Source: a virus (Duplodnaviria; Caudoviricetes). From it: 34,794 bases of DNA. The notes below the pieces were generated by a model. That model was not told where the DNA came from. It made no database searches and saw nothing but the letters and a program-made list of their open reading frames with translations. The stretch's first letter is position 1, and the number at the start of each line of letters is the position of its first letter. Location: positions 1 through 34,794 of the IMG/VR virus record IMGVR_UViG_3300011339_000093, one strand, 5' to 3'. Shown one piece after another: positions 23,786-30,004 of the stretch. Both the position numbers and the translations under genes were made by a program.

Positions 23786-25192
23786 TTATGCAACCCGCGA
23801 CAAGTTTCTGCGCAATGGCTGACTCCACTTGCTACTTGATGCACTGCCGTACATTCCCGCCACCGCATCACTGGCAAATGTCAGGACAAAGGCATCGGCC
23901 TTGTCAGGGCTTGGCAGGCCGCGCCTCTTGATCTCGTCTTTACCCTCAATGGCGATCTTGCCGTTTGAAGTGAATGAGTACCGCACTGTGGCCAGCTCGG
24001 CAATCAGCACATCATCCTTTGGCATCTTGCAGTCCCGTGCTTCGAGCCAAGCCCTTGCCCTGTACCAAAGCTCTGCCTTCAAGTTCCTGTAAGTTCCGCC
24101 CATGGCTGGGGACTCGGACACGTTGATGCCTCTGGCCGGCAGGCCCAGTTCTCTCAACCGGTCCACCACCCCAGCGCCTAAACCGATACTATCCACCAGT
24201 ATCTCTTTGGGCTGCTGGCTCGGTGGCAGCGCCTGGTACTCGGCCACCACCGCGCCAGTCAATTGCATCAGGTCCAAATTCTTCCAAGTCCGTATCGCTT
24301 CAGTCACCGCATTGCCTTGGCGCTTACATAGGGCTGACCGGTCACTGCCAAACCTTGCCACATCCAAGCCCCAGATCATGGGCGCATACTCACTTGGCGC
24401 CACATCCCGATTCAATGCACTTTCCAATAGGTCCATGGCAATGACAGTGTCATCATCCCCTTTGGGAAACTCACCCACCACCCTGATGCGGTAGACGTTG
24501 CTGTCTTCCCCATAGCGCATGGCCATCTCATCAATGTACTCTTTGGAGACCCTTGGACTGTCCATGCAAGAGACTTGAAACGTGGTCCACTCATCTGCCA
24601 GGCGCGTATGGGTATCGTAGAAAAATCCGCTACTTCTCACCGGATTGCCCAGCAATAGCGTCACCGCATTGTGGCCAGACATCGATCCAGCCGCTGCCTC
24701 GAACACCTGCTCTGGCACACCAGAAGCCTCATCAGCCACCAGCATCACGTTCTCTGAGTGAATCCCCTGCAAAGCCTCTGGCTGCTCTGCCCTAGATGTC
24801 CTTGCCGAGATAAACATCTCAGTGGGTGCGGCATTGAATTCAATCCTCTCTTGCTTGACAGTCAAGAGCTGCTGCAAGGGCAATGGCATTGAGTTGATCC
24901 ACCTCTTTAGCTCTGCAAACATCGCGTCATAAAGCTGGCTGCTCGTTGGTGCAGTCACCACCACCTTGACAGGACTCCTGGTCATAAAGTACCAGAGCAT
25001 GGCCCAGCTGCTTGCCGTACTCTTTCCCACCCCGTGGCCACTCCTGACACTTATCTTCCTATCACCCCGTGCAATAGCCTTCAAAAACTCAATCTGCCAC
25101 ACATCAGGATCAACCCCCAACACCTCTTGAACAAACAAGACAGGATCAGGCTGATACCGGTCCACCCACTGACTGAAGACATTTTCTTTCAT
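23786..25192 (-). CDS. terL: Terminase large subunit
   Basis: Walker A SGHGVGKS, Walker B LVADEASG, LLGNP coupling motif, nuclease GLDVARFGSD and SPDKADA. Confidence 0.95.
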   Translation of the reverse strand: MKENVFSQWVDRYQPDPVLFVQEVLGVDPDVWQIEFLKAIARGDRKISVRSGHGVGKSTASSWAMLWYFMTRSPVKVVVTAPTSSQLYDAMFAELKRWINSMPLPLQQLLTVKQERIEFNAAPTEMFISARTSRAEQPEALQGIHSENVMLVADEASGVPEQVFEAAAGSMSGHNAVTLLLGNPVRSSGFFYDTHTRLADEWTTFQVSCMDSPRVSKEYIDEMAMRYGEDSNVYRIRVVGEFPKGDDDTVIAMDLLESALNRDVAPSEYAPMIWGLDVARFGSDRSALCKRQGNAVTEAIRTWKNLDLMQLTGAVVAEYQALPPSQQPKEILVDSIGLGAGVVDRLRELGLPARGINVSESPAMGGTYRNLKAELWYRARAWLEARDCKMPKDDVLIAELATVRYSFTSNGKIAIEGKDEIKRRGLPSPDKADAFVLTFASDAVAGMYGSASSSKWSQPLRRNLSRVA

Positions 25193-26145: not shown

Positions 26146-26175
26146 ATTGTGATCGGTTTTTGCGCTTTATGTCAA
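26146..26175 (-). promoter_or_regulatory. Sigma70-like promoter for the small-ORF/terL/structural operon
   Basis: TTGACA (26175-26170), 18 nt, CACAAT (26151-26146). Confidence 0.55.
26160..26175. promoter_or_regulatory. Operator-like motif copy 1 (TTGCGCTTTATGTCAA)
   Basis: Near-identical copies at 27290, 32413 and 33244. Confidence 0.6.
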
Positions 26176-26296
26176 CTACCTCAAAATTTTTTTAGAAAAA
26201 TTTTTTTTGTAGGTGTTTAGTGCCGCCACAGTCGCCCCCGCCAATCCGGCCAAGGGGGGGGTCTCGGCCACCGACCGCCAGCCGGCCACCGCTGGG

Positions 26297-26397
26297 TTAT
26301 CCACGGATTTTGGCCAACCTTATCCACAGATTCCTGTGCATAACTAGGCTTGTAATACTTTGATGCACTTAATTCTGTGGATATCTACTTATCCACT
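26297..26397. promoter_or_regulatory. DnaA-box cluster I (five boxes)
   Basis: TTATCCACG 26297, TTATCCACA 26320, TGTGCATAA 26335, TGTGGATAT 26376, TTATCCACT 26389; consensus TTWTNCACA. Confidence 0.7.
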
Positions 26398-26422
26398 TAA
26401 CATAATGGTCATTGTATTAAGT
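26395..26422 (-). other. dif: dif-like XerC/XerD recombination site
   Basis: Minus strand ACTTAATACAA-TGACCA-TTATGTTAAGT; 11-6-11 geometry; right arm matches the E. coli XerD arm TTATGTTAAAT at 10/11. Confidence 0.7.
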
Positions 26423-26429
26423 GACTGAA

Positions 26430-26951
26430 TCATTTGGTATTCATATCTGTCAAAGTGTCTACCGATACGATGCTGCGCTTGCGCAGGGCATCGAGCGCCA
26501 TGCTTCCAAGGTCGATGTTGACCAGGGGCTGCTGCTTGTCTCCGTACTCATCTGGCGCTTGCTTAGAGGCCAGCCAGCGCCTTGTGTCCACTCTCAGCTT
26601 GGCCACTTGCGCGTCTTGAGGCGTGGCAGCGTCTGCAATTTCAATGGTTTCCTCTGCTAAACTTCGGCCACCACGCGCCCGCGCACGCGCAAGGGCGGAA
26701 GCCCTCGCCTCGCCTCCTCTGTCGATCCAGTCATAAAAGCCTGTATGACTCACACCCAACGACCGAGCCAAGCTGAGAATGGTTTCTCCTTGTGAGAGTC
26801 TGTCTAGCATGGCAATTTCGCCACCGGCAGCGTGAATCTTCTTGTTGACATCGGTGGCCTCTTTGCGTGCAAGAGCTGCTTGTTCTTTGAGTCCCATCTG
26901 TCTGGCGGCAATGTTGTCTGCCAGCTCACTCATGGTTTGTGCTTTGGCCAT
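26430..26951 (-). CDS. terS: Terminase small subunit (Sf6 gp1-like)
   Basis: HTH (LARSLGVSHTGFYDW), ARAR..LAEETIEIAD, AKLRVDTRRWLASK..P..YGDK. Confidence 0.85.
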   Translation of the reverse strand: MAKAQTMSELADNIAARQMGLKEQAALARKEATDVNKKIHAAGGEIAMLDRLSQGETILSLARSLGVSHTGFYDWIDRGGEARASALARARARGGRSLAEETIEIADAATPQDAQVAKLRVDTRRWLASKQAPDEYGDKQQPLVNIDLGSMALDALRKRSIVSVDTLTDMNTK

Positions 26952-27312: not shown

Positions 27313-27641
27313 GCTTCGGATTCTACTGCCGAGGCTTTGGTCTGGAACAAATGGCATCGGTGTTTGATGTCGGTCGGGAATGCAGCCAGTCCCGTTTGGC
27401 TGCACTGGTGTTCGGTCCATGTGATGGTTGCCCATCCATTCCTAATCTTTGCCTGGTCAAACATCCACTGAAGTGGTTTTGCGTTGACCTTTCTGTGCCT
27501 TTCCATCTGCTCGGCTGGCATGGACTGTCGCTGCTCCACTTCTACCGCCTTACTGCACTGATGGCAGAAAACGCGCTCATCTTCCACGAATTTCTCTAAT
27601 TGTGGATAACCTGTGGATAACTGCTCAACTTGTTGGACCAT
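27297..27641 (-). CDS. Hypothetical Cys/His protein
   Basis: GGAGAG RBS; CHQC...C...HRC; 5' end overlaps two DnaA boxes. Confidence 0.65.
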   Translation of the reverse strand: MVQQVEQLSTGYPQLEKFVEDERVFCHQCSKAVEVEQRQSMPAEQMERHRKVNAKPLQWMFDQAKIRNGWATITWTEHQCSQTGLAAFPTDIKHRCHLFQTKASAVESEAWWLT

Positions 27642-27849
27642 CGTTTCTCTCCAAAAACAGTAAAAAGTAAACCGGTATGGACAAAGGAAATCTACCGCTT
27701 TACCGCTTTACTTTTCACCATCCCAAAACTGACCAGATTGGCCTGTGGATAAGTGGGTCTAAAGACCCCCACTTATACCAACAGACCTGCCTTTATCTAA
27801 ACCGGTATACCGGTTTACTACCGGTTTACTACCGGTTTACCGGTTTACT
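27601..27849. other. Putative replication origin: three perfect DnaA boxes, a hairpin and ACCGGT repeats
   Basis: TGTGGATAA at 27601, 27612 and 27744; imperfect inverted repeat at about 27749-27776; repeats at 27801-27849; immediately downstream of the primase-helicase. Confidence 0.6.
27801..27849. repeat. Iteron-like tandem repeats of ACCGGT(TTACT), five copies
   Basis: ACCGGTAT ACCGGTTTACT ACCGGTTTACT ACCGGTTT ACCGGTTTACT. Confidence 0.85.
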
Positions 27850-30004
27850 TTATTTGAACCCATCCAGAGCTTGACTGGTCCAATGCAAAGCGCTGGAAAA
27901 TGGCGCTGCTGACAGCCCGTCTTGCATAGCTTTGGTCAGATGCTGGCACGGCCTGATAGATATCAGCCCACTCCAGCTGATGCATTGTTGCCATCTCCTT
28001 TGGCACTGATGGCCGCCCTGACCCTCTGCGCATGATGACCGCGCCTTTGGCGTTGATGATGGACTGGACAAAGTTGCAGGCCGCATCACACGCATCTTGT
28101 ATTTGTTGCTGTCTTTTATCGTTCTGCCGGTCGTTGGCTGCCTGCCTTCGGTCTTCTTCCGAGGACATGGCTGGAACGACAAGCAGCACCATCTGCTCTT
28201 GGATATCCCCATCTTCATCAAGGACAGTGTCAGCAAAGACATCTGATTGAAACTTGATTTCTCTGAAGTTGGGCTGGTAGCGGGTTTTGACCAGGCGCAT
28301 ATAACGGGTCTTGGTCTCGTCTTCAAACAGAACACCGGTCAATGTGGCATCACCGGTGAATGCGCTTGCTCCACGGGCTGTGGCATCTGAGTCTGACTTG
28401 CTGATGGTCTTGTTGGTGTGTGTGATGATGCAGACTGGCGTGTCCAGTTGGATGTAGATGGTCTGCTTTAAGGCTGCAATATATGCACCAACTTCGGAGT
28501 TGTCATTCTCATTGTCAATATCCATTGTGGCATTGGCGGTGTCTAGAACCAATAATGGTCTTACATTATCAATCGTGTGATTTATTACATTATGCGCAAG
28601 CATGAGTAAATCCTTCACATTAGATCGCTTGGCATCGATTATCACAAACCAATCTGATAATGATTGAGCATTTATGCCGTAATGTCTTGAGTATCCAGTT
28701 AATGTCCTTTCAACCTGGTCCGAGTCTTCAGTGACAATAATTGTTTTGCGTTTTTTGGTGGCAGTGAGTTCACAGTCCTTGGCCTGCAAGCCTGCCATGA
28801 CCATGCACAGACTGATGACCGCAGTGGTCTTGCCAATGCCAGGCTGACCGGCCAGCACCATGAAACTGTGCGCCCAGAAACCTTTGACCATGTAACGGAT
28901 GGGTTTGATCTGGCCAATGGTCAATGTGCGCTCTGGCCAGCCTTTGGCCTGTTCTGCCTCTTCCACGGCCACTGGTGCATCCCCTTTGGCCTGACTGATC
29001 ACTGCTGCAAAGTCTTCAACGGCTGACTTGCGCTCAGTCTGTTTGGTGGGCGCTTCCCACCCGCAATCTTTGGCGTACTTAAATAGAGTGCCAAGACCCA
29101 CTCCCTTGCCCTGGTGAAAACTCTTCCAGTGGACTTCAATGTCTTTTGTACCGGCAAACTTCTGGCCAGCCATGGACCATGTCATCCATGGGCCAAGTCC
29201 TTGCTCCCCAAACTCTGTATGCAGCGCTTGGCCCAGCTCAATCCACTGCTCATAGTCGCAATCTGGGGAAATGTGGTGCAAAGCCTTGATGGCGCGATCA
29301 AGGTCGCTGTCATCCAGTCTTGAGCCTAATTGGGTGAAGTCAAATGATTGTGAGGGTGATGCTGATGGCTTTGGCTCTTGGAGCTGGTGCTGCTCGATGA
29401 TGCCCCAGTCTTGGAGCAAGGCATAAAGGTCCACGGCCTCTTGGAATTCACCGACCACGGCATTGCCAGAAAGTAGCACCGACTTTCCAGCACTGTTTGG
29501 CAGGCCAAATACTTCAAGCTCTTGGCCGCCACCCAGTTTGTACTTGGGCAAGACTTGGTCAGCTTCTTTGGGTGGTGAGACCCATAAGAAGACATGACGG
29601 CCACGGCCTGAGACAGAGACCTCGGTCAGCATCTTGTTTTGTTTGACGTACTTGGCCATGCGCTGGATGGCCACATTGGTGGGTCCTGATGCGTGCTTCA
29701 TATCGACATCAAGACAAACCAGATAGTTTCCTGATGCGGAAATGATGGGGCGCTGCTGCACTAGGCCAATGTACTGGCCATGAGGGCATGACTCCATGGC
29801 CCAGATGTCTTCAGCGTTGTATAGGTCTGTCGGGTCAGTATCCCGTGCAACACCTTGGCCAGATCGCTTGTAGGGGATTTTCTTACTGCCCTGTAGGGCA
29901 AAGGTGCAGAAGACTGCATCAGGCGCGACAGTGCCTATTTTGCAGGCGACAGACTGCGACTGACTGAATGTATCTGGCAGGGGTGTTTCAGTTATAGTGG
30001 GCAC
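27845..30004 (-). CDS. Primase-polymerase / PriCT-2 / RepA-like AAA helicase fusion
   Basis: CLDVD and SVSGRGRH (AEP), DYEQWIELGQAL..W.SF (PriCT-2), GQPGIGKT, LVLDT, HTNK, RGAS. Likely start GTG 30004 with AAAGGA 6 nt upstream. Confidence 0.85.
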   Translation of the reverse strand: MPTITETPLPDTFSQSQSVACKIGTVAPDAVFCTFALQGSKKIPYKRSGQGVARDTDPTDLYNAEDIWAMESCPHGQYIGLVQQRPIISASGNYLVCLDVDMKHASGPTNVAIQRMAKYVKQNKMLTEVSVSGRGRHVFLWVSPPKEADQVLPKYKLGGGQELEVFGLPNSAGKSVLLSGNAVVGEFQEAVDLYALLQDWGIIEQHQLQEPKPSASPSQSFDFTQLGSRLDDSDLDRAIKALHHISPDCDYEQWIELGQALHTEFGEQGLGPWMTWSMAGQKFAGTKDIEVHWKSFHQGKGVGLGTLFKYAKDCGWEAPTKQTERKSAVEDFAAVISQAKGDAPVAVEEAEQAKGWPERTLTIGQIKPIRYMVKGFWAHSFMVLAGQPGIGKTTAVISLCMVMAGLQAKDCELTATKKRKTIIVTEDSDQVERTLTGYSRHYGINAQSLSDWFVIIDAKRSNVKDLLMLAHNVINHTIDNVRPLLVLDTANATMDIDNENDNSEVGAYIAALKQTIYIQLDTPVCIITHTNKTISKSDSDATARGASAFTGDATLTGVLFEDETKTRYMRLVKTRYQPNFREIKFQSDVFADTVLDEDGDIQEQMVLLVVPAMSSEEDRRQAANDRQNDKRQQQIQDACDAACNFVQSIINAKGAVIMRRGSGRPSVPKEMATMHQLEWADIYQAVPASDQSYARRAVSSAIFQRFALDQSSSGWVQIK

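Follow-up and report, generated by a model that had tools for sequence, protein, structure and literature searches.

A putative host-type dif core for the recombinases XerC and XerD lies directly beside the terminase small subunit gene (terS) of the tailed phage analysed here, and it forms the core of a larger dif-DnaA cassette that is absent from chromosomal copies of dif. The 28-mer that makes up this core is real and under selection. In sister phages the cassette is missing and a serine resolvase gene is found instead; the two are mutually exclusive, which suggests a functional swap. We lean, with moderate confidence, towards a role in which host XerCD recombines two copies of the site on one phage molecule, closing the incoming genome or resolving dimers, with DnaA as an accessory factor.

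The window, as we call the whole stretch of 34,794 nucleotides, is a 97% complete IMG/VR virus record, and near-identical DNA is present in four riverine metagenomes, all from one study, from which the record may derive. It has a podovirus-like gene set (terS, terL, portal, scaffold, capsid and lysis genes) and also encodes a primase-helicase, an exonuclease, a helicase, an SSB and two divergently arranged HTH regulators. An earlier note on this DNA had proposed a dif-like site in the intergenic space next to terS, and both the site and its location were borne out: the 28-mer at 26395-26422 reads ACTTAATACAA TGACCA TTATGTTAAGT on the minus strand and lies between genes, 7 nt past the terS stop. 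The terminase genes and the parts of the core are:

23786-25192, minus strand: terL, the terminase large subunit gene, 52% to the TerL of Sinorhizobium phage phiM5
26395-26405, minus strand: XerD-type arm, identical to the arm of Rhodoferax and Limnohabitans-type dif
26406-26411, minus strand: central region TGACCA, 6 bp, chromosomal counterpart TGTATA, with a CCA end as in psi
26412-26422, minus strand: XerC-type arm, matching the dif of Rhodoferax and of the Limnohabitans type at 9/11
26430-26951, minus strand: terS, with its stop 7 nt before the XerC arm

With at most 3 mismatches allowed, the Comamonadaceae arm pattern fits nowhere else in the window, and none of 100 shuffles gave a match. 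It has the make-up of an XerCD core site, namely two 11-bp arms, a spacer within the 6-8-bp range and an XerD arm that shows stronger conservation than its XerC counterpart. The XerD arm also agrees at 10/11 positions with the E. coli arm as the earlier note wrote it.

The guess that the arms point to a Comamonadaceae host gained support when the 28-mer was compared with betaproteobacterial dif sites. The dif of Rhodoferax ferrireducens is given as ACTTGATACGA TGTATA TTATGTTAAGT (PMC2731167, PMC3025954), and the window matches its XerD arm at 11/11 and its XerC arm at 9/11 positions (20/22 in total), whereas the dif arms given for Polynucleobacter and Methylobacillus in the same sources are clearly unlike those of the window. 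A metagenome scan with a free spacer yielded 49 sites with TGTATA, mostly with the arm ACTT(C/T)ATACGA, among the 120 of about 590 matches listed. Six contigs with TGTATA had bacterial flanking genes (mltG, holB, tatD, tadA, guaA), and the HolB of one of them clusters at 90% with Limnohabitans radicicola; this Limnohabitans-type dif has 20/22 arm bases equal to those of the window. Because of the arm match, the host of the phage is likely a member of the Limnohabitans/Rhodoferax clade. The Limnohabitans-type chromosomal dif itself occupies a conserved neighbourhood (L272, L329, L285, L318), within a few kb of holB-tatD or mltG and of a penicillin-acylase-like or ldcA gene.

Among related phages, a protein-based scan of the 80 best out of 178 terS relatives placed the site directly after terS in 78, with an exact XerD arm in 74 of the 78 sites and one mismatch in the other 4. 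Of 47 near-complete records, 41 hold a single copy each; no match was found in the remaining six, of which five are resolvase phages and the sixth has a site that has diverged. The site occurs at 69/71 loci of the window's TerL group that have 3 kb upstream, at 31/36 loci of a TerL group that is 77% identical (22 of them inverted), at 36/63 loci of a group that is 31% identical and at 7/7 loci of a group without a blastp match to the others; these counts take in loci recruited by the pattern and therefore run high. About 320 IMG/VR stretches contain the strict cassette pattern. At the threshold of our scoring matrix, which 1 of 28 bacterial control loci reached, a few true divergent sites were missed (L415, L455, L456). 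The fetched flanks of 27 of the 63 loci in the 31% group held neither a scored site nor a match to the resolvase query or the two integrase queries, so that the function is not universal. In phages of this group that lack dif (L499, L504, L517, L518, L519), the G-tract is preceded by as many as 16 tandem TTGTCCACA-type repeats, which look like iterons or an expanded DnaA array.

Compared with GenBank phages and PLSDB plasmids, the cassette DNA showed chance-level similarity alone, and a dif-like site was absent from the surroundings of related terminase genes in GenBank, where seven regions were covered, three of them only 2.2-2.5 kb long. The same geometry with the XerD arms of other hosts gave 7 viral matches; 2 are real (L541 and L546, TerL group 4) and the remaining 5 apparently arose by chance. 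In one set of loci (L412-L449, L082, L083, L105) the cassette is inverted relative to terL, and some of the DnaA boxes lie at or inside the 3' end of a terS-like CDS. In satellite-like elements (L322:6001-6028, L331:6001-6028, L327, L290, L348, L364), a dif-like site whose spacer is CGGGCG precedes a small conserved ORF, and a DnaA-like box comes immediately ahead of the XerC arm. L322 encodes an integrase and a primase, and L331 an integrase; the site in these integrase-encoding elements belongs to the second class described below.

When relatives were aligned, the arms were kept and the spacer drifted, as anticipated. We compared 285 unique sites, among them 207 main-class and 28 second-class phage sites and 43 chromosomal-type sites. 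The spacer had been described as variable and non-chromosomal, as in plasmid Xer sites. Its non-chromosomal character held up: TGTATA occurs in 0/154 unique viral sites, all 154 thus differing from chromosomal dif, and the spacer ends in CCA in 163/235 phage-type sites. Its variability was true in part, as positions 2 and 6 are constrained and equal the host's in 218/235 and 217/235 phage-type sites. Positions 4 and 5 equal the host's in merely 3/235 and 6/235, and position 1 is unlike the host's in 125/235. The first three spacer bases are those of the host in 44/235 phage-type sites and the last three in none; the window has 2 of the first 3 in common with the host.

The inner end of the XerC arm differs as well. 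Position 10 is G in 43/43 chromosomal-type sites and A in 181/207 main-class phage sites, so that the arm ends in ACAA in the window and in ACGA in chromosomal copies. The psi site, read from pSC101, is GGTGCGCGCAA GATCCA TTATGTTAAAC, with an XerC arm ending in CAA and a spacer ending in CCA, and the XerC arm of cer ends in TACAA. In the spacer and the inner XerC arm, both of which are altered relative to host dif, the phage core resembles plasmid psi and cer. One E. coli-type KOPS, GGGNAGGG, is present in the whole window, and no polarity toward the site was seen with this motif, which is that of E. coli and may not be that of Comamonadaceae.

DnaA boxes were sought with the pattern TT(A/T)TNCACA at no more than 1 mismatch, following the consensus quoted in 10.1101/866236. 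The window contains 20 matches, a number that 0/100 shuffles reach, and they form two clusters at 26297-26397 and 27601-27752:

26297-26305, plus strand: DnaA-type box D, at +89
26320-26328, plus strand: perfect DnaA box C, at +66 and in inverted orientation, with 6 bp between it and box B
26335-26343, minus strand: DnaA-type box B, at +51, 41 bp past box A
26376-26384, minus strand: DnaA-type box A, separated from the XerD arm by exactly 10 bp
26389-26397, plus strand: DnaA-like box with 1 mismatch, which overlaps the XerD arm and varies between relatives
27601-27850, minus strand: second DnaA cluster, where the primase-helicase gene ends, with three perfect boxes and short TAAACCGG-type iteron-like repeats

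Box A at +10 is the core's most constant partner, found at 195/207 main-class sites, with box B at +51 in 175/207 and box C at +66 in 182/207, in a set that was partly selected by boxes; a further box is often present at +89/90 among relatives. Boxes within 120 bp lie on the XerD side in 203/207 main-class sites and on the XerC side in 14. The inter-box spacers, including that between A and B, are fixed in length and drift in sequence, and the box variants mostly track the degenerate position of the DnaA consensus. Against its near-constancy in the main class, the +10 box is found in 0/28 second-class and 0/43 chromosomal-type sites, which means that spacer class and box layout covary. The same split was seen in the unselected metagenome scan, in which spacer and boxes were free: among the 120 of about 590 matches listed, the +10 box accompanied 0/49 TGTATA sites, and a box at +10 or +51 accompanied 41/71 non-TGTATA sites. 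The earlier note had the site overlap the last DnaA box. An overlapping box is indeed present at 26389-26397, but it is not the conserved one, being found in 41/78 relatives.

The phage DnaA-type DNA-binding domain PF08299 was found in 0/47 records, and inspection by eye revealed neither a conserved IHF site between boxes A and B nor conserved DnaA-trios. Boxes are few or missing in some phages that have the site (L104; L320, L452-L455), and two sites with the phage-type spacer TGTCCA (L352, L353) have none nearby. The second cassette class (L389-L411, L293, L300, L334) has a CGGGC(A/G) or CGGACG spacer and two DnaA boxes of the same direction that flank the core at about -19 and +20. Such boxes, inverted and at about +20 and -19, occur in 21/28 sites with the CGGGC(A/G)-type spacer, and the +10 box in none.

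The relation between the cassette and the serine resolvase was followed in the interval between terS and terL, where two further features of the window are needed:

26146-26208, minus strand: sigma-70-like promoter and A/T tract; the first gene behind this promoter is the serine resolvase in sisters of the resolvase type
26220-26265, minus strand: C-tract/G-tract motif, homologous to the end of the phiM5 terminal repeat

In L036, L078 and MW202879 the whole cassette is missing, and the promoter is followed first by the gene of a small serine resolvase, or by the beginning of that gene. A resolvase of 222 aa is encoded at L036:2283-2951 and in L548-L597, as the first gene after the early promoter. 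Our resolvase scan covered 51 loci, 44 of them with terS in view. In the 450 bp upstream, a site or box was found at 0/51 resolvase loci, and none of the 44 with terS has both the cassette and the resolvase. Conversely, the resolvase is encoded at 0/69 site-bearing loci of the window's TerL group and in 0/35 long records. A quick TerL tree, built on 47 of 152 thinned rows, places the main resolvase clade within the dif phages (SH-aLRT 98/96) and MW202879 in a second, separate resolvase lineage, which together indicate about two independent switches between dif and resolvase. The resolvase phages may have other hosts.

A different palindrome occupies the interval in 31/45 resolvase loci and in 0/77 dif loci; it is of the GGGTTAACCC type and lies about 55 bp before the C-tract in resolvase phages. 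It could tentatively be taken for the res site of a resolvase-res system at the genome end, a label kept tentative because a similar palindrome also adjoins dif in another TerL group. The second DnaA cluster (at least 3 boxes) is present at 54/65 dif-type and 27/33 resolvase-type loci. As it is kept in both kinds of phage, it lies outside the cassette, and it is a candidate replication origin or DnaA-controlled late promoter. The loss of the first box array together with dif, with the second cluster retained, indicates that the first array belongs with dif and not with an origin.

The position of the cassette relative to the genome ends can be predicted from phiM5, which has an annotated direct terminal repeat of 357 bp just before terL. 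The last 45 bp or so of this repeat contain the C-tract/G-tract motif, aligned to window positions 26234-26265, and the end of the repeat lies 42 nt beyond the motif's first C. By this homology, the right edge of the repeat in the window is predicted at about 26220-26225, and dif would lie about 170-200 bp inside the predicted terminal repeat, which must then be longer than about 205 bp to include the site. The distance from C-tract to dif has a median of 161 bp, with the tract on the terL side, at 92/93 loci of the window's group, and the 77% and 31% TerL groups have the same order of tract and dif. phiM5 itself has an integrase and lacks both dif and the box array. The 154 contig ends examined do not accumulate near the site. 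Read depth from four runs, all of one study, with contig depth pooled with relatives and no joints listed, was 77.9 for the unitig 26215-26448 against 34.8 for adjacent DNA in run X1 and 45.4 for the unitig 26388-26595 against about 35 in run X2. The C-tract/G-tract motif and the A/T tract (window 26146-26265, L140:300-390) are common to the phiM5 repeat end and Phage C72C1 (L603), and the C-tract/G-tract motif may be a general genome-end marker in this podovirus group.

A mechanism that would join these features begins after entry, with one cassette expected in each terminal repeat. The two copies would be brought together or activated by DnaA sitting one turn away from XerD, and XerCD exchange between the repeats would yield a circle with one copy; later, the same site could serve in dimer resolution. 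Recombination with the host chromosome would be prevented by the altered spacer, and DnaA on the XerD side would take the place of FtsK or PepA/ArgR. We infer from the sequence that XerCD and DnaA bind the cassette, that the reaction is intramolecular and that the spacer diverged to avoid recombination with the chromosome. Closing of the incoming genome is a plausible role that we propose tentatively, and dimer resolution of replicating circles is possible, if rather doubtful; the two could both hold.

A more specific reading is that host DnaA, one helical turn from XerD, pairs the repeats of a linear podovirus genome and so enables FtsK-independent XerCD circularisation, possibly linked to the state of DnaA, with sister lineages using an immediate-early serine resolvase instead. 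We put this forward as a tentative proposal, in all its particulars somewhat doubtful. The broader preferred reading, XerCD recombination of two copies on one phage molecule, builds on the conservation after terS and the single copy per near-complete record, on the resolvase swap, the plasmid-type core and the coupling of core and boxes, and on the predicted end position together with the lack of an integrase, resolvase, ParA or phage DnaA domain; a tyrosine integrase or resolvase was found in 0/35 long records in a search with positive controls. Several points count against it. The terminal-repeat placement is derived from one distant cultured relative, which itself has an integrase and no cassette, and contig ends do not accumulate near the site. 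The resolvase swap comprises about two independent events, in phages that may have other hosts; 27 of the 63 loci of the 31% group showed neither a scored site nor a match to the recombinase queries in their fetched flanks; and boxes are few or missing in some phages with the site. Accessory-dependent Xer recombination at psi and cer needs supercoiled DNA (10.64898/2026.02.23.706985), which argues against a genome-closing step on a linear incoming genome; either pairing differs here or the site acts only after circularisation. Finally, known accessory sequences lie on the XerC side, which argues against the DnaA array as an accessory on the XerD side.

The linearity of incoming DNA, a poor substrate for psi-type recombination, speaks for a binding pad without strand exchange, at which XerCD and DnaA would shield the end from nucleases, tether it to the membrane, control entry or titrate DnaA during replication. 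The site's position at the predicted genome end fits such a pad, T5-like phages are reported to have about 8 phased DnaA boxes in the terminal repeat, and control of DNA entry has already been proposed for the T5 injection-stop region (both 10.1101/866236). We nevertheless regard it as unlikely, since it leaves unexplained both the replacement of the cassette by a recombinase gene and the fixed length and constrained, psi-like sequence of the spacer. A TerS or repressor site at the palindrome had been named as what would overturn the Xer assignment; in such a reading a phage protein binds there, the likeness to dif is fortuitous and the boxes are primase-helicase iterons. The site does adjoin terS at the packaging end, and phages without dif in another TerL group have iteron-like tandem TTGTCCACA repeats, but we give this reading almost no credence: the same asymmetric core with its host-identical XerD arm accompanies unrelated terminases (TerLs 31% identical or unmatched by blastp) in both orientations, the window has distinct iteron-like repeats of its own, and the box variants mostly follow the degeneracy of the DnaA consensus.

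Temperate life styles without an integrase offer two other explanations, for each of which the absence of an integrase, here from the window and 35 long relatives, and the resemblance of the divergent HTH pair to a CI/Cro switch can be cited. In one, the site is an attachment site for XerCD integration at host dif, VGJ-phi-type, XerC-first and resolved by replication. In VGJ-phi, too, the part of the attP spacer next to XerD is unlike that of dif (PMC5357621), and the first three spacer bases are host-like in the 44/235 sites given above. Integration is nonetheless distinctly unlikely. An XerD arm with a box gave 28 matches in 185,579 species genomes, none with a proteobacterium title or an XerC arm; a host spacer with a box gave 0 matches in metagenomes; and terS or terL was found at 0/57 chromosomal-spacer loci, the metagenome part of which was drawn from the 120 of about 590 matches listed. 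Likewise, no attL/attR junctions at dif were found in species genomes, in metagenomes (120 of about 590 matches listed) or in viral contigs, a search that could miss rare lysogens. Moreover, position 1 of the spacer is non-host in 125/235 sites, satellite-like elements with an integrase of their own (L322, L331) also bear such a site, and the swap partner is a small resolvase-type enzyme. In the other, the phage is a plasmid prophage with the DnaA array as a host-driven origin and dif as an independent, FtsK-activated site for dimer resolution. Four to five DnaA-type boxes beside AT-rich DNA suit this idea, and FtsK-dependent 28-bp sites exist (10.1101/2024.04.05.588136). However, an origin is not expected to disappear when a resolvase takes the place of dif, the second box cluster with its iteron-like repeats stays in both phage types, and two independent functions need no fixed 10-bp spacing. 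ParA was found in 0/46 records, a single E. coli-type KOPS is present in the window, and no plasmid has a close TerL, all being below 60%. This makes a plasmid prophage very improbable.

Among known systems, the phage cassette is most readily set beside psi (pSC101) and cer (ColE1), with which it shares a dif-like core, a non-chromosomal spacer, an XerC arm ending in CAA, flanking boxes for a host transcription factor at fixed distance and the lack of a recombinase of its own. Unlike psi and cer, it is found in tailed phages rather than plasmids and in a predicted terminal repeat, and its array of about 100 bp lies next to the XerD arm and consists of DnaA-type boxes, in place of an ArgR/ArcA site with PepA. 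The side of the accessory sequences reportedly sets which recombinase cuts first, a result ascribed to Bregu et al. 2002. At psi/cer-type sites these sequences replace FtsK and lie on the XerC side (10.1101/2024.04.05.588136, PMC5357621, PMC9226527). The cassette would thus work like an accessory-dependent Xer resolution site, yet with its accessory array on the side opposite to that at cer and psi.

Comamonadaceae chromosomal dif has the same 11-6-11 geometry, XerD arm (11/11) and most of the XerC arm (9/11), but the phage sites never have TGTATA, mostly have A at XerC position 10 and add the DnaA array. The attP sites of the IMEX phages CTX-phi, VGJ-phi and TLC-phi and of Vibrio tailless phages are also dif-like sites of phages without an integrase; those phages are filamentous or tailless and integrate at dif, whereas here no junction was found and the spacer is little host-like. 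P1 Cre/loxP cyclises the phage genome through terminal redundancy. It also keeps that genome monomeric by site-specific recombination (PMC5357621), as would be the case here. Unlike P1, which encodes its recombinase, the window and the 35 long records lack a tyrosine recombinase, and host XerCD would act, or a serine resolvase in the sisters. The T5 injection-stop region shares phased DnaA boxes in a phage terminal repeat, but T5 has a repeat on the 10-kb scale and two-step injection, and no Xer site is mentioned in the account of this region (10.1101/866236); here a repeat of a few hundred bp is predicted. Full-text searches of an open-access library brought up Xer use by filamentous and tailless phages, plasmid prophages with recombinases of their own (PMC8026635) and the DnaA boxes of the T5 repeat, and no listing among them describes a dif-DnaA cassette in tailed phages.

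How phages without a recombinase and with short terminal repeats close and monomerise their DNA is poorly known, and this common phage group offers a 130-bp element that is open to testing on plasmids. The exchange of dif for a resolvase provides a natural comparison. The arms may serve as a host marker for uncultured phages, here pointing to the Limnohabitans/Rhodoferax clade and away from Polynucleobacter. If the preferred reading of DnaA-assisted XerCD recombination is true, DnaA acting from the XerD side would be a new mode of XerCD control beside FtsK, PepA/ArgR/ArcA and XafT, and the uses of Xer would come to include one in tailed phages that is not integration.
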